Below are positions 13,223-28,637 of a DNA stretch of 64,000 nt, piece after piece. This DNA is from Patellaria atrata CBS 101060 (Eukaryota). The stretch covers positions 139,707-203,706 of the forward strand of contig MU006117.1 of NCBI GenBank assembly GCA_010093705.1. Reading direction: 5' to 3'. Numbering within the stretch: the stretch's first letter is position 1; every line of letters starts with the position of its first letter. The position numbers and the translations under genes are program-made. The notes beneath the pieces are model-generated. The model searched no databases. It worked only from the letters and a program-made list of their open reading frames with translations, and had not been told where the DNA came from.

Positions 13223-14281
13223 GACTTAGATCTTCTAGCAATGTGCTTGCCAAAACCGTGTTGATATTAAAGGAAAGTTAATAGAGTAGCCTGAGGAGGC
13301 GAGGAAGGGAAGGTCTAGGGTATCATTTGAAAGACCAAAAAGGATTGCTCAAGGAAAGATGAGCGAGGAAATAAAGAGATTAGGTATTTGACGGTGTTTC
13401 GACGTCCGGTGTAAGGTAGGGTAAGGTGTTAGACAGCAATCAAGCGGTTCATTGTAAAGTATAAGTTGAACATAGGTCGTGGTTTCTAAGCTCAACTTTA
13501 AGTTTCTATGGTACCAGGACCGTATGCGGGATCAGGTCAATGACAGAATATCGCCTTGGCGCCCACGTGATCAACCATCACAATCAAGAATTATTGCCCC
13601 TATGAGAGAGCTAACAAGTTGGGTAACTTTTGCATTTGCAGTGTGCTATATCGATACACAAAACAACCATATTCGTGTATCGGAGATAGGATTGCTTTAT
13701 AGCGTGACAAACAACCTGGGAATCAACGCAAGAGGTAACCAAACATGCTGGATATACCTTCTCTAGTTCACCAAGCGCTGTATCCTCCTTACATAGGGAG
13801 AAACCTTGCACAAATTTTTCCGCCCACAGGAATCATCAAACCCTTGTGTATCTTGTAACTCCACGCGGTTGAAAGTTGGAAAAACAAAATCCGCACGCCA
13901 CCTGAAGAAACCGGCCGGAGAGAGTTTTAAGACACGAAACGAACTGAAATACACACAGATCGACAAGCAAAGCCACGTCGAAACATACAAGAGAGAACAA
14001 GAGATTAAGATACAATAGTGAGGGGGTGGATTGATACCGGATGCTGATACAGAGCGCGTGGCCGCCATTGGGGACATTAGAGGTTCTTATAAAGGACTCG
14101 AACGATAAAGAAGTCCCCGGGTATCCTTGAACGCCGATAAGCCACTCCTTTTGCGAAAACAGTAGTAGCCCGTCTTAAAACCTTGTACGCCAGTCGAAAG
14201 ACCCGAGCTGAAAAGCAATTTTCCTCTATCGAATCATATAGCGTCGGATAGTCCTCGGTCTAGTCTTATGATTCTGGATGT

Positions 14282-17200
14282 CTAAGGTGAAAATTCACGC
14301 TTTGGTTTCTTGCCCCTTTCTAACCAACGTCGCTTTCCTACACGGGTTTCGAAATGGGGTGCCACGCTAGCGACATCTTGGCCAGCAGCAACCATAGTGC
14401 TCCGCATTTTGTTTCTATATGCATCAACTAGAGATTGTTAGAATGGACATGTGTTTCATACAAATTCACACTTACGAGACCTCTGAAGGAATAAAGCGCG
14501 GTTAGAGAATACTCGGCTTTGGGCCCAGCTCATTCGATAACCAAGATCATTCAGAGTAACTTCTTTGCTGCGTTTCGTCTTAGTACGTCTAGGTAGAGGA
14601 ACTTCTGCGTCACCATCAAGAGTCTTGACCTTGACAAGCATTCTTCCTGTCAGTGGAGCATCCGTACTCAAAGCGTTCGAGGCCTCGGCGACAGGATCAT
14701 CTTTGAAAAAAGCGCGTCCCCGCGGAGAACTAGGTGGTGATTGCATCTGCATCGGAAAGTATGATCGAGGAAAGACTGAGTTGCTCTTTCTGTACGAATC
14801 GGGCATCTCCTCCATGTGAACTTGATCGAGCATGACCCTCACCCTCACTCTCGTACCCCTTTGGGAATCGTCAACTAAGATGAACTTTCTCCGTTTGGAC
14901 TCTGGTAAATCACCGAAAAGTGACTTGCTCTGATCGTCTTTGTCTTCTTGGGTGGATTGAGGAATGGAATTCGAATGAGGTACACTATGCGGCCCAAGAT
15001 GACCCATTCCGTCGTGTATTGATAGGACAGACGAGTTACCAACATTCTGCGCGGTGGGATAGGTCGGATAGAAGTTCTGCGCGTGGCGGACATCATTGGG
15101 ACTCGACGTTTGCCCGTTCGGGGCCTGGTGATGGTGGGTGTGAGGACCATCATTGTAATTACTCCCGGCTGCAAGAAACGAACAGGATATTAGCCTACAC
15201 ATATCATCAAGCAGGTGCATATGTTGCTGGGGAGACAGATTCCGTGAGGGAGTATTTTACATGCAAGGCAAATACAGAATAAACAAGGATATGTATATAT
15301 ATATTTCGATTCCCAATTCTGCACAGAACGAATGCATCTTAATCACATCTGGTGAAACATACCGCTAACATCATCATTACCTCCAGGTGGTCCACCACCA
15401 GGGTGTTCGTGGTGGTGGTGTAACTGAGGTCCTCCGATACTCATAGCAGGTTGTCTAGGACCTGGTCCCGGATTCAGTCCGGCGGAGTTAGGCACACCCG
15501 CTGAAGCTGGACCGCTTGGTCCTGTCATATGCGTTCCTTGCTGAGCTGCCATGTTCTTCCTGTTTGATATTTTCGCCATCCTTCTCACACGCCTACTCCT
15601 TAGGCGAGGGTCCTGATTACTATTGCGCCAACTATCGACTGCTCTCTGAATAAGGCCTCGCTTCCCTCTTAGACACGGATTTAACTGCGCCAAGGCCCAT
15701 CCGACTGTGTTACATTCTGTTTCGTAATGCAATCGGTTGCCTTTGTACTGTTCTTTACTACAGCAAGCTCGAGGGTAAACGCAATTCTCCGTCTTGAATT
15801 CTTGAGGGAGGTCTTCCACATTTACCGATTCGACATCGCAACGAATAGTGTACTCCATCTTAACACGGTCCCTGGAATACTCGAAAGCGATCCATTGCAC
15901 ACCATTCTGGTCTTGACGAACAACTAGGGGTGTGGTAGCTGGGATTGGTCCTGGAGCTGCGTTTGGATTCACGTTTGCTGCAGATGGGGGCCCATGGTGC
16001 ATGTTTGCTGGCGCGCCCGGAGGACCAGTTGGCGGACCCTGGGTGGGTCCCAAGCCTGATGGAGGACGTTGGAGAGGCTGCTGTAGCTGCTTCGTTCTGG
16101 GGCTCCCTAGGCCAGGGGTGTGCGGATTGGGTGGTGGGTGCTGTAATGACTGCCCATGCGGATTAGACATCAACAACGACGTGCTAGACATCGGCTGATG
16201 TTGTTGTGATACAGGATGCTGAGCGTAGGGAGACTGCTGCGCCATTTGATACGGCTGATAATACATGTTTTGCTGCAGTTGAGCAGATGGCTGGGAATAC
16301 AGTGGCCTTCCGTGTTGATCATGCTGGGGAGATTGAACAGACGCCGGCGAGTTAGATTGCGGCGTCCCATAAATTGGGGGGTACGGGCGATTCATTGTTG
16401 CTGCTGCCATCGGTTCAATTTCTGTATGTTGAGTTAGTCCAATATGACACATTAGGAGTCAATATCTGTTCATGGTGGAACGGTTTTTCGGACGCGGAAT
16501 TCTAGCTCACCTGCTGATGAATAACTTCCCGTAGCACTGTTAGCACTGTACGGGCTGGGATGCGCCGTATAATACGGAACTTCTGGACCTTGCTGAGCGG
16601 ATTGGCCGGGTAGATTCGCTACGTAAGGCGATTGGTGCTGGGTTGGAAGGCTATGTGTAGACGAGTGTGGTGATGCGTAAGGTCCTTGAGCTGCAGGATG
16701 CGCTTGCTGATGAGGCGAATCCGGGTGATGCTGATGCTGCTGCTGCTGGACAACACTTGATCGTGGGTGTTGAAGATGCTGAGGCGGTGGAAGGCCCTGC
16801 GCAGATTGGTGGGGGTGATGCTAGCAGGTGACAGTCGCGTTAGCCACGGTTCCGTTGTTTTGATAATGGACGCGAAGTTTTTAAGGACTTGATTCTGGTA
16901 AACGAATTGATTGCCCCTTGCATTCGAGGAAAAGACAAAGATAGATATGGGGTGAAGTGTCTCTCGTCCTCCACCACGCGCACACAACACTCTTATCAAA
17001 AACTAGCAATTGACTATGCTTTAAAGAAACTTCATGACTATTCAACGACGGTTTAAGGTAATTGAGAAGTCGAAGTTTGGTACAGACAAGCCCTTGGGAA
17101 ACGTGGGGAAATAAGGGGAAGACCAGGCTTTAACGAGCACGGGGGTTTATACCAGCGAAAATGCCTGAGCAGACGCTAGATAGATATGCGAGTAGAGGAC

Positions 17201-17575
17201 AGGGACTCTTGATCACAGTGACAGAAACGTTAAAGACTAGGAATATTTTGAGGTGAGGATGAGAATCGACGAGGGTGGAGGGCCCAAGTTGATATGCTAG
17301 CAAGGAGTAGTACAATGGCGGTGCAAGTTGCACGCCGGAGGTTTTGAAAGACAGGAAACAAGCAGGGAAGCCGCTGAGAACAAAAGGCGCGTGGGAAGCA
17401 TGAAGAGTGGGTGAGCAGACAATAAAAGAGCAAGGGAGGGATATAGGTGTTTAACGGTAGGGAACAAGTAGGGGAGTGTTGAGAAGAATAATAAGGTATG
17501 CGTGTGGTGGTAAGTGGTGACTGGTATGCTGTAGGGGAAAACAAGCCAGTCATCTTGGCGAGAAGGGCCTACCAT
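14282..17575 (-). CDS. Conserved filamentous-fungal protein of unknown function: Q/H/P-rich N-terminus plus two related globular domains (probable nuclear regulator). Exons 17575-17573 (ATG only, inferred), 16820-16511, 16421-15363, 15168-14476, 14427-14282
   Basis: Frame-consistent GT-AG junctions link HHPHQSAQGLPPPQH..., PATTPLVVRQDQNGVQWIAFEYSRDRVKMEYTIRCDV...KRGLIQRAVDSWRN and KRRKFILVDD...LFLQRS|LDAYRNKMR...REFSP*. The first exon is less certain than the rest. Confidence 0.82.
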
Positions 17576-20500
17576 GTAGCCAGAAGAACGCGTGAACTGG
17601 GGTTAAGGAAACCTTGAAGGGTAGCCCGTTATGCGGCGTCAACGCGACAACGATGTGCGGTGGAGGGCTGATGCATGCACGCAAGCAAGCAAGCAAAAGT
17701 GTGGGAACAAGAAAAAAAAAATAAGAGCGGAAGCCAGCAACGGTTGCAGGAGGAAGAGAAAGATTGTGTGGATTGTGCGAAACGACGGGAAACGGTTGCT
17801 TGAAAGTTTCGTGAATAACAGGGAGTATCACTCACAAGATCGTCCGCCACATGAGCCGGCTGCTCCTTACCCTTATACCCCAGAGGAGACTTCGCCCTAT
17901 CTTGATGCGACGCATGCGACATTGTTATTATTACTCTCTGCTCCGTACTTGGGGTGACTGGGGAGGAGTTGAAATGTGTTCAAGGTTTTAGAGGACGAGG
18001 GTAAGGTGCAAGGTGGATGGATGGATTGGGGCACTGGGCAGTGGGCAGTGGGCAGGCTAAGTGACCGACAGGCTTTAACAACGGTCGTCCGTGCGAGGCC
18101 TGCCTCTTTTTTATTTTGTAAGAAAAGTTGCCAAAAGCCCTTCTGGTTAGTGCTGCTGCCCACCCTGCCTGCAACTTTAGCTACCCAATTCGCAATTTCG
18201 ACACTGCAGAACCGCTGCAACGAGGCTGTGACTGGTTGAAGGTGAAGAGCGGCGAAGGGGACGGAGAACGGAGTAAGTGTCAAGCTCGGTCAAGGCTCCC
18301 AAAAAAAATAAAAAAAAAAAAGAGAGTCAAAGTGGGCTTCAAGGGTAACGAAATTCGAAAGGCTCGTTTGACGACCCTGAAAGGGACTAACGCGTGTTTC
18401 CAGCTGAGGGAAAGAGGGAAAGAGGGAAAGAGGGAAGTCTCCACCCGCAACTGAAATAAACTCAAAACACCCTAAAGCAAGAGCGAGCAGCCACACAGTT
18501 GACAAAACGCCTATCGCAACGAGAGGTCGCCTGCCACTATGCCTATTTCTGGTGCTAGACCCTCTTGGCGACATCACGGCAGAACCAATTCCAGCGCCTG
18601 GGAAGGAAAACGTACAGGCTCAAAGATGTGAAATCAGAAAATCAGAGAAAGGGAAATCAGAGGGAAAATCTTCGATGCTACCCCTTGTGCATTGCCCTCA
18701 GCTGCATGCGCGGGGAAATTGCCTATTCCAGCCTACTGCCCCGCGGCTGTTGGATGCGTATTAAATCCTTGTGCAACGGCTTTTGCCCGCTTAAGCTCAC
18801 GATGGAATACCAGGCGTGGCTGGCGTGCAACGGGCGTGGAGACCGCGTGGTGGGCCGGTTGATTTGCCGATGGGTCGAGGCCAACTTCATGCGTAGCCAG
18901 GAATCTAATCACTACTGACCTGGATGGATACACAGAAGAGGCAGCAGCTCAAAGGGAGTACAACAAGATGTGCAAAGTAGAAGAAAAGGAAACGTTTCGA
19001 GGATCCGCTCCAGAATACTCAAGATCGGGTCCCCTTTCATCATCACGACACCAGTACTCCTCAAAACTGCAGCTGGTAAGACAAGGAGAGGGGATTAGAA
19101 GCTACCCGCGTGCCCGTCTATGAATTATTAATCCCTTCGAAATCTAGTCCGTAGCGCGATAGAGATGTGGTTGCTAGCTTGCTGTCCGTTCTTAGGTCAC
19201 CTACTGCGCTTGAAAGCCTTCCACATACCGTTAGCATCCTCAACTGTCAATAATTCACGACATTATTTGAGAACGGCGACTTGTTCATGCGAATTGCGGA
19301 AGAATGTTGGCCATCTGATGATCTTCTAAGACGAAGATGCGGCTAATCTTGTACTGTACTGTATAGTACTCTGTATCTTTGCCCTCCTTTTACAGTTTAC
19401 ACACGTACTGTCCTTCAACTCACTTAAAAATTCCAAAAGCCGTCTTCCAAGAAGGGAATGGGTCATCATTTTGTGTGACCAAATTCCGCCATCGTGATCT
19501 CTAGCTTCTGTTGGTCGCCTGAATTGGTATCCTGCGACCTGCGTCCATTATCAATCCCGAGCCCGCTGTTACAAGCGCGACAACAACGCGAACGCACGGT
19601 CAAAGATGACGATAACGATCAAATTTGCTTCTCGGGGAAAAACCTCACACTTCCACAGGAAACATCCACATGTATCAGCCACAGAAGCCTGCCGTTCACG
19701 GGTCGTAACCTCGATGTTCCCTTACTTGACGTTTCGCTTCCCCGTTCAACTCTCTTTCTTACCTTATTCCCTAGCTTCGCGGGGTTGGAGGGACCGCCGT
19801 TGAACATGGATTTGATAGGGTATTCCTTTTAGGCCTAAGATGCCCGACCGTTGAGATGTCAGGGGTTTCAGTGGATTGTCAATAAAGATCACCGCAATCA
19901 ACGGTCCAAAGCGAACACTTTGACCCCGGTGAGCATGCGCCAGTGGGCGTGATGCTCTTATGCCCATTTCATAATCAAGAAAGACGAGCCAATTTTCTGT
20001 CCAATAAGAGCTACACGAATGAAAATGTCCCCTTCGGCAAAGTCTCTTGATATTCTTCCGATTTTGACGGTAATTTCAAAGCGTACACTTACCTCGAAAG
20101 AAGCGATGGTACGAGCGGTCTTAATCAATTCTGCATAGGCCTACTCCTCCTAGGGCCGACTGCAGATGGTGCGGAGAATATGCCTCGCCCTGTCACATCG
20201 CCGAGATAAAGATTAATGGATGGTAAGCTCTAGTGCCAATAATTGTTTTCTCAAGCGAAGAACTATTTGACAATAAGCCTAAGTTGCGCTTCATGCTCTC
20301 AGAGGGATTCTTTTCATACTTCTGATCTTATAACTCTTGGCTTTAAAATTGTGTCGCCATTGTCTTTACCCGAGTTGGTCCTCTCGCTCTATCACACAGT
20401 TCCCTAATACGTGCACTCCTCCGAATGATGAGTCTTGAAGTTATTGAAGTTACTGTGCGCTTTTAGCCGTTCAAAATATCGATTGCACTGCTCGAAACGT

Positions 20501-23500
20501 CCGAATGAGGTCAATTCTAAGTAAGAGCATTATGGATGGACACCCTTGGGAGCTGGGATGTAGACGACGGTCAAGCGAAGAATAGTAACAGTGCGCCGCA
20601 ATCTGGGGACTCTCTCACGTTACCATTGTCTAGGGAGCCTCAAATGCACAACGTGTTATTGTGATAAGCTTGTGACACGCGACATTCGAAAGACAGTAGC
20701 TTCCCTTACAGCCAGTATCATCCCGTTTCTACTCGGGATACCGAGGTTCCGAAAATGCCGAACCTCTTTCTTTGTCGGCACGCTGAGTTAACCTCTCTGA
20801 ATTTTCCTAATATGAACTAGAGACCGTCAATGTATTTTAGTTCTACGGGTTCATCCGATTCCCCGCAAAACCATATATGATACTAGATGAACTCCGAATC
20901 GCTTTTATTGCGGTGATACATCTAACGGTGCTCACCTAAGGTACTGTATTCGTCCAGTAGTCAGACAAATCAAGATTTCCAATAATCGCGAAATAGAACT
21001 ATACACGTCGCTTCTTCTAGTGGGCCAGAGTTGATGTTGAGCTTGTTCAAACCCAAATGACGGCCGGTTGATACCTGCATATGGTAACGGGTGATGATCC
21101 TACCTACTACTAAAGAGTAAAGATATGCAAGCAAGTCGATAAGCCAGGGATTTCAGAAGAACACATGTACTGTACGTTAGCAGAGACCGGATTTTCATGA
21201 TGCTATTCGTGCGAAACCCCACAACCGATACTTGTATTGAACGCGATTTTCCGTCGGCGCCGCATCAAGTATCCTAAACTAAGGTATACCCGAAGTCCTG
21301 TCTTGCTGACAGTGCCTATCTTATTAGTAAAGGCGACAGGAGGTAGAGTACCTTTATATCCGGCCTGTCAAATCGCCTTCAACTTGATGCATTCAGTCGG
21401 ATTCAGGCGTCCACTTCTGTCATGCAGAAAATGCGATATGAAGTTAAGTTTACGAGACCATTCTTCTATATTGCAACTGGTGCCGATGTCTCAGTTTTTA
21501 TATTGACTAGCATCAACTGCAAAAAGACATGATGATAATAAAGTTGAAATAGGCAACTTAAAGACATGTCTCCAGACTCCACCTTTCCAAGTTTTCCAGG
21601 CCCGCATTTAGAAGGGGCAAGGGCCAACGGTCCGGAGTACCCATGCGCTGATTTTCTCAGGCTTTACCTGGCTTCCCGCAGCTTCCTTGAGGGTTCACAC
21701 TTCGTTACCCGTCTAACCTCTTCAACACAGATCAAACTATCTCGGGAGGCTTGCATGATGAAGGTTAAGCTCATCTCGAGCGCGATCCTCGAACCATCTA
21801 GATTTGAAAATGGTCAAAAAAAGAGATCGTATAGCTATCAGACTTTCAGTAAGTGGCCTTTCGGAATGTTGAGACATCAATCTGATGTTGTAGGCAAAAT
21901 AACTTCGAATCAGCTGTACTCCAACCTTCTCCCCACCTCATATGACCAACTTACCCATCATTCGCTCTCGACGTTCGATAATTTACTAGATGGACGGTTG
22001 ACTTGGAACATTTCTCGATGCCAGTCGGGCCGTTCAGCGGTATCTTCGATCCAGTACAACTGCCGCAGCCTAATCTGAAGTGGCTATAAATCGATGCTAC
22101 ATATATGTGCTCCCATATAGTTTAAAAGAGGACCCGTTGATTCACAGTTGTAGCTATTTTCAGGTCTTTTGCGCACACACCAAGGAGAAATGATCGTTGC
22201 ATGACAGCAGAAGCTTTTTGTTCGACCTGTCCAGGCGAAGCACCACAAATCATCATCGGCGACATGCCTGACCTCCACTACACCATAACCCGCTTGGCAA
22301 ATCCACCCCAGTAGCCTACTTTGGTACGGAGTGACAGACATTGGCCATTTTGCCGGCGATCCGAGATGGTGGGCACGACGCCAGTTAGGGGCAAAAGGCA
22401 CGAACAACCATGTCAGAAATCGAGCTCCTGGGTAATAATAATCACGACAAACTGTTTACCACAGAAACGCGTTTCTTCGACATGAAACATAACATGATAG
22501 AGCAAGATACTGCTGGATTTCAAAGACGGAGATATTCTCAACTAAGCTCTAACCGAGGGCAAAGGACTAAACGTGCTTGCATAAGCGCCACCCCTCACTC
22601 ATCCACCCACCCACCAAAAAAGAAGACAGATACCCGTGCTGATTCGTCAAAAGGTACACATCGAGGGTGACTCGAGAGGTTTGCCGTCACGTCAATAAAG
22701 AATTATGAGGAGCGTGCCAACCTAGCCCTTCTCAACGGGTCTATGGGAGGGACAAGGTATGCCCTGCTTCCCGTTGAAACCCTGCTGCCGTCTAGGATTC
22801 ATCAAGCCATGCAAGAAGGGGAGTTCTTGAGTACGGGTATCTTGAAGTTCTTGACAGGCTTTTTCAAGGCGGTGGGCTGAGACTAGCATCTATCCGGTCT
22901 CCTATCTGCTACCTTATCTGCACGTAAATGGGCTGACATTTGCAGGGTCGATTGATACTGTATGTGCATCACAATTCTTTCGAAAGTTAAATATTCACTG
23001 TACTGTATCCGAGGGAAAGCAAAAACGATATGTTTAGTTAATTACAAAGGTCCCAAACGAAGGACGTCGTTGGAAACGTGCTTTTCATGCCTTGCAGGCA
23101 GGATGCGAGCGCGTGTCGGCGGAGATTGCTCTGGACGCAGGCGTCAGGAGAAATTCCCATTGTTGTGGGAGCCCCAGCGAGTGGGCTTTTAGTGAAAGAT
23201 GGTGAACTGTATGCCAGTGTCGCACGGAGTTGCAGGCTTATGGTACTCCAGAAACTCAGATCTTGAAACTATGAACGACACAGACAGGAATAGATGTGAT
23301 CTGCTTCTACAGCATGGATACCAATGGGATAAAGATGGTATCGTAAAAGTGGTTTATCATGCGCAAAGTCTCAAAGAATCAAGTCAATCAACCCCCTAAA
23401 GCCCGTACGACGTCGCGTAAAAGTTCGGCCGTGCGCTCCCTCAGTCCCTTCCGCTTGGCTTTGGAGACATGAAGCCGATCATCAGACATCACTTTGTCTT

Positions 23501-25940
23501 CCAACCAATCAGACTACTGATCCAACGCCTTGTTCGGAAATACGCTAGAATCCTTCTGATATCCATCAACTCCTCACCAACGTTTGTTTGAAGGAGATGA
23601 AAAATCCGAGACGGCGAACTTAAAAAACAGCTGACGTGGCATTTCTTTGATATCATTCCGTGATCGAAAACACTTCCAGAATTCAGAGGCGAGACCGGTA
23701 GTTTTGCTTTGATGATTTTGGCCGTGAGGATCATGTGTGTAAGCTGCATCAAAGCAAATCTTTCTTGCGTCTTTGACCTCTCATTATGTCCGTGCATTAT
23801 TGATCAGAGTGCAGTTCTCTTTTCTCTCCAATCGAGGAATTTGTTACCTTGGACTCATATTGCAGTGACCCACCAATGCCACCCAGGGCTTACCAGCATT
23901 CTCCGCGTTTTTTTTTTTTGGAACCAGGTGATGGGCAATCATTATCTGTACGTGAATGTGGCTATCTTCGTTACTGGCCACCACATCGGAATAATGCTCA
24001 CCGAGTCCGTCGAGACGCTTCATGGTGTAATGACATCTAGAAATCACTCAACGTACAGACTTGCACCGTCAGGTTCCCGTACACCGACATTGACCTCTTA
24101 ATAAGCACCTCAGCGTCCTTCGTTGTAATCCACTACATACTCCGTTATTTTGGTATGGGTCTGTGTAGCTCAACATCAGCTGGACATGATTCTGCGGTAA
24201 CACCAGCACCAACATCAATGCAAGTGATGGAATGTTAGCGAGATTGCCTCCTGTCGCACCAAAAGAAATCACGACGTCACTCAGAATCTGCGCAACCGCC
24301 TCTCAGTTCGAGTGGTAAGTTGTGCAATCAGATCTGCATGCTCATGTGGTAGGCTATCCGCCTTTCCTCTCCAACCTACGGTCTCAACTGTCAAGAGCTT
24401 GGATCCTCAGGGACTCAAATCTCTACGGTAAGCTCATCTTTCCATTGTCATTGTCGTCCGCTTTCTAGTTCGTTTCTAGAATGAATTGGAGCAACTCCAA
24501 CTGTTGCGGAAAGCCACATATACGAGTCATAACCCCTATCAACATCAACTGATTTGGCCACAGATCACGCCCTGCGGGACGAACAAAGATCGCATTCACT
24601 AGATGAACTAGTCACCAGGTTTTATTACACCGACCATCGTAGATAGTATCTGAGGATACTCAACGTATGACGGTGCCAGTACAACGTAATACCGTGTCAT
24701 AAACATCGCGAGTCCCGTACCATAAGAACAGGACAGCATGACTACAAATCAGGTCGCTGGAAACCAGATCTATCCTGTACCCCGAGTTACGATGTCCCAG
24801 AACATCTTCCGTACTGATGATCTCGTCAGAAGACGGAATGTAACTTGTTCGGCATGACCGATGGGACTCGGCTGCTTGCATAACGATTCTCTTTGGGAAC
24901 GTTACTGCACTATCAACAGGCGGCAATCCGCATCCCCGATCGGAACTCTGGGCAGTTTCTTCCCTACCAATGTTTATGACACTGGTCTGGGACTCGGTTT
25001 TCGTATGAACAGTACTGTACGATGTACGGGCCTTCTGATCAACTTTGTATGATTCCAAATATACCGTTCATATCACCTAGGGAAAGATAAGTAACGCTGT
25101 CCCGGCAGTAACACAAGAGTATCACGCACCGTTTGTATATCATCTTCAAAGAGGTTGAAATGCGAACTGCGAGAACAATTAGTATGAAAAGAATATATCT
25201 CTCATACGAAACCAAGTCTACCACCTCATATTCTTTGCTATTATCACTTGTCTACAATTGACCCTTTCCTTGACTATAAGTGTAAGCTACGACCCCCTAA
25301 GTGAAGCAAAGACTTTAAAGCAATACTTCCGCATAAGACACACGTAGGTTTTCGCCAACCTGAAGTCGCATACTATATGTAAACCCGCAGATCGTGGTGG
25401 AATAAATGAGGCCCAGTTATCATCCCAAGGAACGTATCCTTAACCTCTCAGCGGCGCTCCACATGTAAAAAGCTGCGGTAAGCAACGACGTGTTCTCCCA
25501 TACTTAGAGGAAGGAAAGAACTATTTCTTAATTCATTGTATCACATTCTTCACGCCCTCACTCAACAAAGCGGTCGTCAATAATGTCATTGAGTCTCTAA
25601 TAAAATATTCTGTGCCCCGTAGCAGAATTTCCACACATCGTGATCATCTCATCCAGCAAACTTCAGTGTCAGTATAGTCCCCCGTGTAGCTTTTATTGCC
25701 GTAATAGCTCTCCTCAGGCAATTACACTTCCTTCCACACCTCGATATCCCACTCAACCTTCTTGATCCCTCGGCCCCATTCATCCAACATACCATAAAAA
25801 TCTTCCATATCCCACATATAGTAGGAGAAATCAAACCAATATCCTACCATATATCCCGCACAACACCAACCCCAACCCCAAGCCCGCCACAAGAGAAAAA
25901 AAAACACATTTCAAATCATGTAAAAATTAAAAAATGAAAA

Positions 25941-26088
25941 CAGTTCCCGCGCCCCCTTGTCAGGGGGTACGCGGTAATCTGCCCCCGTTCGACGGGGCCG
26001 AGGATCGAACCCAGGACGTGATGGCGACTCGGCCCGATTCGGTGCGGGGGGGGGAGTTTTCCCACCGCTGGGCCACGGGTCCTGGGCT
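25941..26088 (-). mobile_element. tRNA-derived SINE-like element / Pol III-transcribed ncRNA
   Basis: Minus strand: A box TGGCCCAGCGG (26075-26065), B box GGTTCGATCC (26011-26002) inside a T-arm, two GC hairpins, then TTTT/TTTTTT. Flanked by the 7-bp direct repeat ATGAAAA (25934-25940, 26089-26095). 104/148 bases are GC. The acceptor stem does not pair, so it is not a canonical tRNA. Confidence 0.65.
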
Positions 26089-26701
26089 ATGAAAAGGGGT
26101 TATGGGGCGTTTGATTATGTAGTTGGGCTGGGGGAACGGATTTGTTGTTTTGTTTTTGGGGGGGTGGGGGGGTGTATGCTGACTATATCCCTTTGACAGA
26201 CGGGTTAGAAGCGCAGGTCAGGGGTGGAGTTATTGTGATCTGGTGAAGTCTTCTGTAATATATCGTCATGGGATAAATGGGCTCAAGCGGTTTTTTTTTT
26301 TTTTCTTTTTTTTTTTTGGTTGGACTTGGGGTCGTTCGTATTGCGCCCGCGATGGTAAATTTTGATTGTAGATTTATACGATCTCTTCGGTCCGCAAGTT
26401 CCGCCTTCGTCATCTCGTTCCTCTGCTTTCGTGTTTTGTCTCTTCGTGTTGCCTTATCAGCTCGTCTCTATACCTGGACTATCACTGTGCTTGATATGGA
26501 GGGTTGGATATTGAAACGGGTGTAGAGCAGTTTTCGTGATTGATTCACTGGCACAGTGCATGTTAAGGAGGACGGATAACTTGGGTATTCGAAGCATTTG
26601 CACTGTTAAAATCGTATCGTACCGTATATACAGAACGCAATCACGCTGACCATCACAACGTCCCCCTTCCCAAACATACTCTCCTTCTCCATCCTAGACT
26701 C

Positions 26702-28637
26702 TCACATCCTAAATACGCCCCACTCTCCCTCCTCCCGTCTCCTCCACCTATCCACATTCCTTCCCCCCATCGCCATGCTCAACCCCAACCCGAGCACCCT
26801 CCTCGTATGACTCGGCGGTATGATACCATCATCCCACAACCGCGCGCTGCCGAAGAGGACCTCGCTCTCGCGCTCGATACGCGCCTTAAGCTCTGGATCA
26901 TCTTTCCCAACCGACGCCATGACCGAAGAGAGCTGCTCGGCACCCATGACGGACGTGCGGGCATTCGGCCACGTGAAGAGCAGCCGCGGCGAATACGCCC
27001 GTCCACACATGCCATAGTTCCCCGCGCCGGCGGAGCTGCCCACGACGACGGTGAACTTGGGCACCGTCGCGCACGCCACCGCCGTCACCAGCTTCGCGCC
27101 GTTCTTCGCGATGCCGCCTCGCTCGGCGTCCGCACCGACCATGAATCCAGATATATTTTGTAGGAATATCAGTGGGATGTTGCGCTTTTGGCATAGTTGG
27201 ATGAAGTGAGCGCCCTTGAGGGAGGACTCGGAGAAGAGGATGCCGTTGTTGGCGAGGATGCCGACGGGGTGGCCGTGGATGCGGGCGAAGCCGGTCACGA
27301 GGGTGGGGCCGTAGAGGGGCTTGAATTCGGCGAGGGCGGAGCAGTCGACGATGCGGGCAATTATTTCGTGGGCGGAGAATTGAGTGCGCAGGTTTGTGCC
27401 GACGATGCCGTTGAGCTCAGAGGGGTCATAGAGGGGTTCGCGGATTTCTTTGGGGGTGGATGGGAGGCCGGTACCGCGGGGGTAGTTTAGGTTGCTGACA
27501 CAGCGGCGGGCGAGGACCAGAGCGTGGGCGTCATCCACAGCTAGATAATCTGTTACCCCCGAGACCTCGGAGTGGAGGTTACCGCCACCGAGGTCTTCTG
27601 CGGACACGACCTCTCCTGTCGCAGCTTTTACCAAAGGAGGCCCGGCTAGAAAGATGTGGCCTTGCTTTTGGACGATGATGGATTCATCTGACATGCTCGG
27701 AACATATGCGCCTCCAGCGGTACAAGGACCCATTACGATGGATATTTGGGGGATCCCTTGAGAGGACACTTTATAGTTCATTAGATGAAGCTTTGGAAGC
27801 TCAGATTTGCGGAAAAAACTTACTTCGCGCTTGATTATAGAATATCCTACCGAAGTGGTCACGGTCTGGAAATACGTCCGCTTGATGCGGAAGATTGGCG
27901 CCACCGGAGTCAACAAGATAGAGACATGGTAGTCCTAAAGAGTGTAAGCTCAGTAATGGGGATAGGTATGGCTAGACGCACGGTTCTCTTCTGCGATAGC
28001 TTGTGCCCGTAGGTGCTTCTTTACTGTGATGGGATAGTATGTTCCCCCTTTTACTCTACAACACGTTTAGTAACGTTACATATGTCCTTTCAGAAAGAGA
28101 CTACATACGTGCTGTCATTGGCAACAATCATACACCTTGCCCCTTCTACCGTCCCGATTCCCGTTATAATTCCACCAGCTGGGACCTCTTCTCCGGGATA
28201 AACCCCGTGGCCCGCCATTGATGATAATTCGAGAAAGGGAGTTCCCGGATCTATAAGAGCAGAAATCCGACTACAAGATGATCAGCCTTAATATAGCAAA
28301 TGAAAACATCTACATACTCCCGTGGTAACATCTTTCCTCTAGCAACATGTTTATCCCTAGCCTTCTGAGATCCTCCTAGTGAAACCTTCTCATGTAATTC
28401 GGCAATGTGCGACGTCACCGCATTCATTTGTTCCCTTTGCTCTTTGAACTGTGCTGATGATGTATCGATGCTTGTAGGTATTGTAGATATAGCTGCTGCA
28501 TAGTGGGAATGAGTATGGCTCGCGATGGAGCGGACGCAACGGGTTAGGTTGTTATATTTGGATCGTTTTCGGGGAATTGTGCGAGCTGAGAAACGGAGTA
28601 GAATTAGGATCTCTCTTGAAGGTACTACTGAAGCCAT
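26702..28637 (-). CDS. mccB: 3-methylcrotonyl-CoA carboxylase beta subunit (5 exons)
   Basis: Spliced translation: ...[30 protein letters not shown]...[92 protein letters not shown]...[12 protein letters not shown]...[10 protein letters not shown]...GVFRM*. Confidence 0.95.

Follow-up and report, generated by a model that had tools for sequence, protein, structure and literature searches.

The question raised by a stretch of 64,000 nucleotides (nt) from Patellaria atrata CBS 101060 (contig MU006117.1; the whole stretch is called the window below) is the nature of a compact, GC-rich unit of 148 nt on its minus strand (25941..26088), which begins like a tRNA and ends in a hairpin. The initial annotation, made from the letters of the window, offered two answers, namely a young tRNA-derived short interspersed nuclear element (SINE) or a novel structured transcript of RNA polymerase III (Pol III). 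We find that the unit has relatives at other loci of the genome, and that it most likely belongs to a low-copy family of a known type, tRNA-derived and SINE-like, and is not a unique new RNA gene. In the interpretation that we consider probable on balance, it would be a diverged copy, probably with little or no activity, from a lineage-specific tRNA-derived repeat family of low copy number and of the Pol III type, most likely a T-tailed 'stringent' SINE. Directly observed are its motifs, the stability of its 3' hairpin, the existence of further copies in different flanks and the decayed state of the window copy.

The motifs named in the initial annotation (A box, C-run spacer, T arm with B box, both hairpins, GAACTG and T runs) were all recovered at their places on the minus strand, and the marked GC richness of the unit was confirmed (0.703, vs 0.48 and 0.39 for the adjoining 200 nt on the two sides). 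Read in the direction of the putative transcript, the unit starts with AGCCCAGGACCCG (26088-26076), which includes the acceptor-like 5' strand GGACCCG (26076..26082). The A box TGGCCCAGCGG (26065..26075) agrees with TRGCNNAGYGG at 11 of 11 positions, and overlaps a D-region hairpin formed by GCGGTGGGA and TCCC(CCCC)CCGC (26044..26068), the latter strand including a run of nine C residues (26054-26046). After a spacer of 53 nt from the A box lies the B box GGTTCGATCC (26011-26002), with 10 of 11 positions of GGTTCGANNCC, so that the promoter is of the kind expected of a SINE. The B box is contained in a T-arm-like element, CTGGG-TTCGATC-CTCGG (25998..26014), whose stem is fully paired (5/5, two pairs being G-U). 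A first hairpin, CCCCG/TCGAA/CGGGG (25997-25983; feature entry 25981..25997), overlaps a degenerate acceptor-like 3' strand, CGGGGGC (25987-25981), with which GGACCCG pairs at five of seven positions. The 3' module (25941..25981) consists of the motif CAGATTACCGCGTACC, a second, bulged hairpin with an 11-bp stem, CCGCG-TA-CCCCCT/GACA/AGGGGG-CGCGG (25974-25947), and GAACTG. In the numbering of the unit itself, box A occupies positions 14-24, box B 78-87 and the 3' hairpin 115-142.

Immediately after the 3' module, the minus strand carries T runs that resemble a Pol III terminator, TTTT-CA-TTTTTT (25929..25940), and the sequence following the hairpin module reads TTTTCATTTTTT. The first seven bases of these runs are the 3' copy (25940-25934) of a direct repeat, TTTTCAT, whose 5' copy (26089..26095) adjoins the other end of the unit as a candidate target-site duplication (TSD). 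A TATA-like CATAAT (26119-26114, minus strand) is found about 26-31 nt upstream of the first base of the unit, and may either serve Pol III as a promoter element upstream of the unit or have arisen by chance.

In view of the tRNA-like head, the identity of the unit was examined with ARAGORN, whose output was empty for the window and likewise for a 651-nt region under each of five option sets, including those that allow introns. No match at the gathering level was obtained from Rfam in the 64 kb. When matches up to an E value of 10 were admitted, only chance matches appeared, none of them a tRNA (three in 451 nt, best E 1.2; six in 121 nt, best E 2.4). A cloverleaf forced by imposing the acceptor, D and T helices had an energy of -26.3 kcal/mol vs -43.3 kcal/mol for the minimum free energy (MFE) fold; the forced structure has five of seven acceptor pairs, three of four D-stem pairs and all five T-stem pairs (two G-U), with no anticodon arm. 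The MFE fold pairs AGCCCAGGAC (26088-26079) with GUCCUGGGUU in the B-box region instead. The unit is thus neither a tRNA nor any catalogued RNA, in agreement with the initial annotation, which had denied it the role of a working tRNA and had found no anticodon arm. It had also stated that the 5' GGACCCG cannot pair with the 3' CCCCGTC; this is correct, and the partner used in the family is CGGGGGC at 25987-25981, with the five pairs given above.

A working tRNA gene, disguised because its parts are permuted or interrupted by unusual introns, seems an extremely improbable explanation. The good A box, the T loop TTCGATC, the acceptor-like helix of a sister copy described below, and the loop of the 3' hairpin, CTGACAA, which resembles an anticodon loop, would all suit such a gene. 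The empty results of ARAGORN in five of five runs and of Rfam at E 10 on 121 nt argue against it, as do 7-10 extra bases between the T stem and the 3' strand of the acceptor, and an anticodon arm is absent both from the window copy and from the pieces of a family consensus. By eye, we tried GT...AG excisions, bulge-helix-bulge excision, a permuted order and CTGACAA as the anticodon loop, and none restored a cloverleaf. Two other classes of small RNA were considered and rejected. For an H/ACA RNA, AGATTA/AGACTA would be an acceptable H box, but the 3' hairpin lacks the length needed for a guide pocket and has no ACA box after it; a C/D box reading was ruled out by the lack of a C box.

We then asked how much weight the motifs, folds and flanking repeat could bear. 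Both strands of the window (128 kb) contained five A-box and 12 loose B-box matches, and the combination of A box, B box and T5 run in close proximity was present at this site alone. The one other pair of A and B boxes (14103-14144, minus strand) has its two words 30 nt apart and its nearest T5 run 210 nt away; T runs are lacking to a distance of 200 nt, inspection by eye showed no tRNA-like features, and this pair at 14144 was judged to be a chance occurrence. Folding energies of individual segments were compared with those of 200 shuffled sequences each. The 3' module (25981-25941) was far more stable than its shuffles (-22.8 kcal/mol, z -4.88, none of 200 as stable). The first hairpin (-10 kcal/mol, z -1.71, 12/200), the D-region fold of the window copy (z -0.49, 64/200) and the tRNA-like 102 nt (z +0.10, 102/200) did not go beyond theirs, and the result for the whole unit was marginal (MFE -71.6 kcal/mol, z -1.99, 7/200). 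Thus, of the structured 3' body with twin hairpins that had been proposed, the second hairpin was upheld and the first was not.

TTTTCAT was the sole word of seven or more bases shared between the flanks of the unit, and the 7-base repeat does bracket it exactly, as had been noted. Among 9081 placements of 20-nt search segments at the same spacing in the window, 141 (1.6%) had a 7-mer in common by chance, as did 385 of 9076 (4.2%) with 30-nt segments. As evidence for a TSD, the flanking heptamer is therefore suggestive, not decisive.

Other copies were sought first within the window, where blastn-short returned the unit itself and five chance words of 11-12 nt, and where the 3' module matched nowhere else. 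A 13-nt repeat pair (25769-25781 and 26028-26040) was within chance expectation by a rough estimate. Evidence for copies elsewhere came from contigs of the only two public sequencing runs that contain the stretch (X1 and X2, with no RNA run listed among them), which represent one sample, possibly that of the assembly itself. These contigs were aligned to 25780-26260 at 80% likeness, and their loose ends, visible for 30 letters each, were reverse-complemented by hand. X1 yielded eight records, comprising one contig of the locus itself, three unitigs and four long contigs from other loci. The unitigs (31-35 nt) had depths of 800, 600 and 422.5, vs approximately 312-332 for the long contigs. The four long contigs (4093-16005 nt) each pass from the unit into unlike flanking sequence, and match 25991-26053 (eight mismatches, one gap), 25991-26020 (exactly), 25994-26038 (six mismatches) and, in record 8, 25995-26096 (11 mismatches, five gap letters). 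The unit therefore has relatives at no fewer than four other loci with unrelated flanks, with shared lengths of 30-102 nt and identities of about 85-100%, a dispersal of the kind expected of a SINE. In X2, 18 records were aligned, and details were obtained from eight of these. The summed word depth at 26001-26017 rose to 3418.9 vs 312 in the flank (X1) and to 5279.4 vs 460.6 (X2); this sum is no copy number and was read only as indicating several more copies. No contig of either run joins across the unit, which, with a single sample, has no bearing on empty sites.

These copies bear directly on the two answers from which we started. The SINE alternative is supported by homologous pieces in at least four other long contigs with different flanks, together with the tRNA head, the hairpin body and the flanking repeat, while the proposal of a single novel noncoding RNA is not supported, the unit being multi-copy; only a version of that proposal involving a gene family, taken up below, still stands. 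The copies also bear on a further explanation, according to which they are relics of one old tRNA gene family, resembling ZOD1 and iYGR033c of yeast, that were spread or kept by duplication at the DNA level and never retroposed, and that may bind TFIIIC or Pol III and give no useful RNA. The retention of A and B boxes without a cloverleaf and a similarity that may extend upstream of the putative start site would fit relics of this type, and relics that recruit Pol III are documented in yeast (the part of PMC5356446 available). It is difficult, on the other hand, to explain by DNA duplication the presence of a unit of about 150-190 bp at four or more unrelated loci, the copies have in common a 3' module unrelated to tRNA, and the window copy has its 7-bp flanking repeat. 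We regard such an origin as quite unlikely.

Comparison of the loose ends allowed the family to be described beyond the window copy. Heads of other copies are of the type GGACCTG-TG-GCGCAGTGGTGGGAAA, or read CCCAGAACCTGTGGCCTAATGGTGG. A D-region hairpin, GTGGTGGGA...TCCCACCAC, is present in one other copy, and other copies have GTGGTGGGA with CCCACCAC in the D region, where the window copy has its C9 run. A core of 31 nt around the B box (25990..26020) recurs exactly, with no differences in X1 records 2, 3, 5 and 6. Downstream of the core, other copies continue with CGGGTCC or GGGTCC, followed in two copies by CAGACTACCACGT. Head, core and start of the 3' module are all part of the repeated unit. 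In a sister copy, GGACCTG pairs with CGGGTCC at seven of seven positions (one G-U), and the family thus possesses an acceptor-type closing helix. Two other copies carry GGGTCC at the position of the first hairpin, and this hairpin therefore looks peculiar to the window copy. The latter has undergone an expansion of the C run and has two mismatches in the acceptor-type helix, and its first hairpin is a by-product of these changes.

The initial annotation had called the element young, a view that we could not sustain. The copies are about 13-15% diverged, and one of them passes directly from the D region to the B-box core, with approximately 37 nt missing. Since its identity with the others is about 85-87%, with insertions and deletions, and its acceptor-type helix has five of seven pairs where seven of seven are found elsewhere, the window copy is a worn one and not a young one. 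Most of the differences seen in the hand-compared loose ends are C or G in the window copy vs T or A elsewhere.

Taken together, the unrelated flanks, the tRNA head joined to a non-tRNA hairpin body, the flanking heptamer, the pattern of decay, and a size and copy number similar to those of the AfuSINE2 families lead us to favour a SINE. For its propagation we infer transcription, retroposition and a partner long interspersed nuclear element (LINE), which would act as follows. At a source copy, TFIIIC would bind the A and B boxes, and Pol III would begin near A26088, which lies some 12 nt upstream of the A box, and terminate within the T run. The 3' hairpin of the resulting RNA of about 150 nt would be recognised by the reverse transcriptase of the partner LINE. 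The short U tail of the transcript (...GGAACUGUUUU) could then pair with the A-rich 3' end exposed at a nicked target site (...ATGAAAA on the plus strand) and prime copying. A new copy made in this way would end in a T run that doubles as the terminator for the next round, and it would be flanked by a duplication beginning with T.

Several observations weigh against a T-tailed SINE, beginning with the origin of all evidence for copies in a single sample. The putative TSD and T tail could be read at the window copy only, the 30 letters visible per loose end stopping short of the 3' ends and flanks of the other copies. An A-rich or simple-repeat tail is absent from the unit, which has a T4/T6 run in its place; a T stretch placed upstream of the TSD at a distance of about 10 nt, a mark of SINEs related to RTE elements, is also absent, 26110-26096 on the minus strand reading ACGCCCCATAACCCC. 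No LINE was seen in the window. The alignment of record 8 continues through the 5' heptamer to 26096, and the heptamer in that record may reflect target preference or may be part of the unit. Further upstream, the flank of record 8, which is otherwise unlike that of the window copy, contains a CATAAAT whose distance from the unit is close to that of CATAAT in the window (26119-26114). A Pol III transcript that was retroposed ought to lack sequence from -30. The CATAAT/CATAAAT likeness is based on two A/C-rich flanks and could be due to chance or to target preference. Two further points concern selection. The 31-nt core is exact in several copies of which the remainder is about 85% alike, which could mean that it is selected. 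The D-region hairpin has GCGG/CCGC in the window copy vs GTGG/CCAC elsewhere, a matched pair of changes; these are ambiguous, as both are CpG transitions, the direction taken by most differences in the hand-compared loose ends, and selection is not required.

Some of these points would be accommodated by a multi-copy gene family encoding a lineage-specific Pol III small RNA, in which a gutted tRNA scaffold serves as promoter and acceptor-like helix and the 3' module (a CAGAYTACC motif and the hairpin) is the functional part. Release of the 3' module may then depend on RNase P or RNase Z, on the model of viral tRNA-hairpin RNAs, or proceed as it does behind the leader-type promoters of RPR1 and SNR52 in yeast. 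Besides the exact core and the matched D-region changes, this explanation draws on the acceptor-type pairing preserved in another copy, on the stability of the 3' hairpin (z -4.88), the motif on whose 5' flank is kept in two other copies, on the TATA-like element at about equal upstream distance in two copies, and on the T-run terminator directly after the unit. It also has precedents in the leader-borne A and B boxes of RPR1 and SNR52 (PMC5356446) and in the TMERs of a herpesvirus (bioRxiv 10.1101/2022.05.09.491269), as far as the available parts of these sources describe them. Against it, the broken acceptor helix, the C-run expansion and the loss of about 37 nt in another copy look like neutral decay, and the matched changes, as CpG transitions, need no selection. 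The tRNA-like part is no better folded than its shuffles (z +0.10), an 11-bp stem is too short for a Dicer-type precursor, and no relative was found outside this genome in the metagenome scan or in the search of other windows and relatives. On the whole, we think a small-RNA gene family unlikely. Were the units expressed and conserved, the finding would gain in weight, and the genome would encode a considerable number of Pol III RNAs not known before.

In a more far-reaching form of this proposal, the copies would constitute a Pol III gene set peculiar to the fungal lineage and would be no retroposon at all. The gutted tRNA, with its A and B boxes, acceptor-like helix and TATA-like element, would be only a promoter and processing handle, and the conserved hairpin RNA of the 3' end would be cleaved away and put to use, making the set a cellular counterpart of the viral TMER design. 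If true, this could form part of an entire class of Pol III small RNAs in fungi that has not been described; we give it a low probability.

Relatives beyond this genome were sought with a 20-base B-box core, which was found at 11 loci in a metagenome scan. Ten of these are GC-rich and read like bacterial coding sequence, and none of the 11 has the head or tail of the family. The remaining locus (contig L001, 365-425) has AT-rich flanks and a tRNA-like D arm (GGTCTAGGGGTAACAC), followed about 15 nt later by the same 20-base T-arm core. ARAGORN found nothing in L001, where there is no space for an anticodon arm, and the locus may represent another 'gutted tRNA' in an unrelated organism. No sequence look-alike of the family was found in a search of other genomic windows and relatives. 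A literature search returned no report of this repeat family, and matches to its sequence strings were unrelated by title.

As to the setting of the unit, the window consists of fungal nuclear DNA, with long open reading frames (ORFs) that encode MARCHF6-type RING, RhoGEF/DEP/PH, RabGAP-TBC, F-box/WD40 and 2-hydroxyacid dehydrogenase domains. The unit lies on the same strand as an ORF with a carboxyltransferase domain (26702-27934, minus strand), about 610 nt downstream of its stop codon. We searched Pfam with 12 of the 32 listed ORFs of at least 90 amino acids, taken from the region of 16-27 kb, 11 of them lying between 16.6 and 26.5 kb. As none of these 12 gave a match, the unit was treated as intergenic. 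More generally, the approximately 10 kb from 16500 to 26700 are without a stop-to-stop ORF of 200 amino acids or more, and the 11 ORFs tested there (90-176 amino acids) had no Pfam match; this region may be gene-poor, intron-rich or non-coding.

Some features of the surroundings were recorded in passing. About 200 nt upstream of the unit and on the same strand, 26291-26317 reads A12-G-A14, and resembles an old retroposed tail or a simple repeat. Just downstream of the unit (25740-25865) there are several short direct repeats based on GGGATAT / ATATCCCAC, with a spacing of 63-131 nt. An assembly gap of 100 N occupies 2285-2384.

The layout of the unit can be compared with several known systems, of which we consulted partial accounts. 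The TMERs of murine gammaherpesvirus 68 consist of a 5' tRNA-like part, hairpins and T-run terminators (bioRxiv 10.1101/2022.05.09.491269), the same Pol III-type order as is seen here. They differ in being viral and in having a tRNA-like part that folds and is processed, whereas that of the unit folds poorly; moreover, their hairpins are microRNA precursors, while the stem of the unit has only 11 bp. In yeast, ZOD1 and iYGR033c are relics of tRNA genes that still recruit Pol III, and RPR1 and SNR52 are transcribed from A and B boxes borne by a leader (PMC5356446). Like the unit, these have tRNA-type A and B boxes outside a tRNA, and in RPR1 and SNR52 the boxes lie 5' of a functional RNA. Each of them, however, is a single locus with demonstrated Pol III occupancy or transcripts, whereas the family of the unit is dispersed and known from sequence alone.

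Among fungal SINEs, the AfuSINE2 families of Aspergillus fumigatus are described as low-copy elements of 140-493 bp with TSDs of 4-14 bp and no cloverleaf fold (PMC5063351, in the part available). Judged by this description only, the unit resembles them in its filamentous ascomycete host, its size, which falls within their range, its low copy number and its short flanking repeats, and in a degenerate tRNA head without a cloverleaf that is followed by a non-tRNA region. For AfuSINE2 the same description mentions an A/T-rich tail, and ACT repeats in one member, but not the arrangement of hairpin and T run with which the unit ends. As a SINE-like relic the unit would be of minor importance, adding one more low-copy, lineage-specific family to the few SINEs of fungi.

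The tail of the unit, which the initial annotation had found unusual, has a counterpart in the Au-like SINEs of flowering plants. The available part of PMC6007223 gives for these a box A at 13-24, a 3'-terminal hairpin in common with RTE LINEs, an end in a stretch of T and a TSD of which the first base is T, and its authors link the pattern of T end and TSD to a role of the 3' terminal repeat in the choice of insertion site. Differences from the unit are evident: the Au-like SINEs belong to another kingdom, the likeness considered here being one of layout; box B, at 57-67 in them (PMC6007223), lies 20 nt further down in the unit (78-87); the run of T that precedes their TSD by about 10 nt is absent at the unit; and they are related to RTE elements, while the Patellaria genome has no known partner LINE, of RTE type or other. 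Even so, the unit agrees with these elements of about 145 nt in the position of box A (14-24 in the unit), in an internal box B, in a hairpin just before the end, in a short T stretch in place of poly-A and in a candidate duplication beginning with T (PMC6007223). If the unit is indeed a T-tailed SINE, the T-tailed, hairpin-bearing layout of the Au-like SINEs of plants would also be present in a filamentous fungus.

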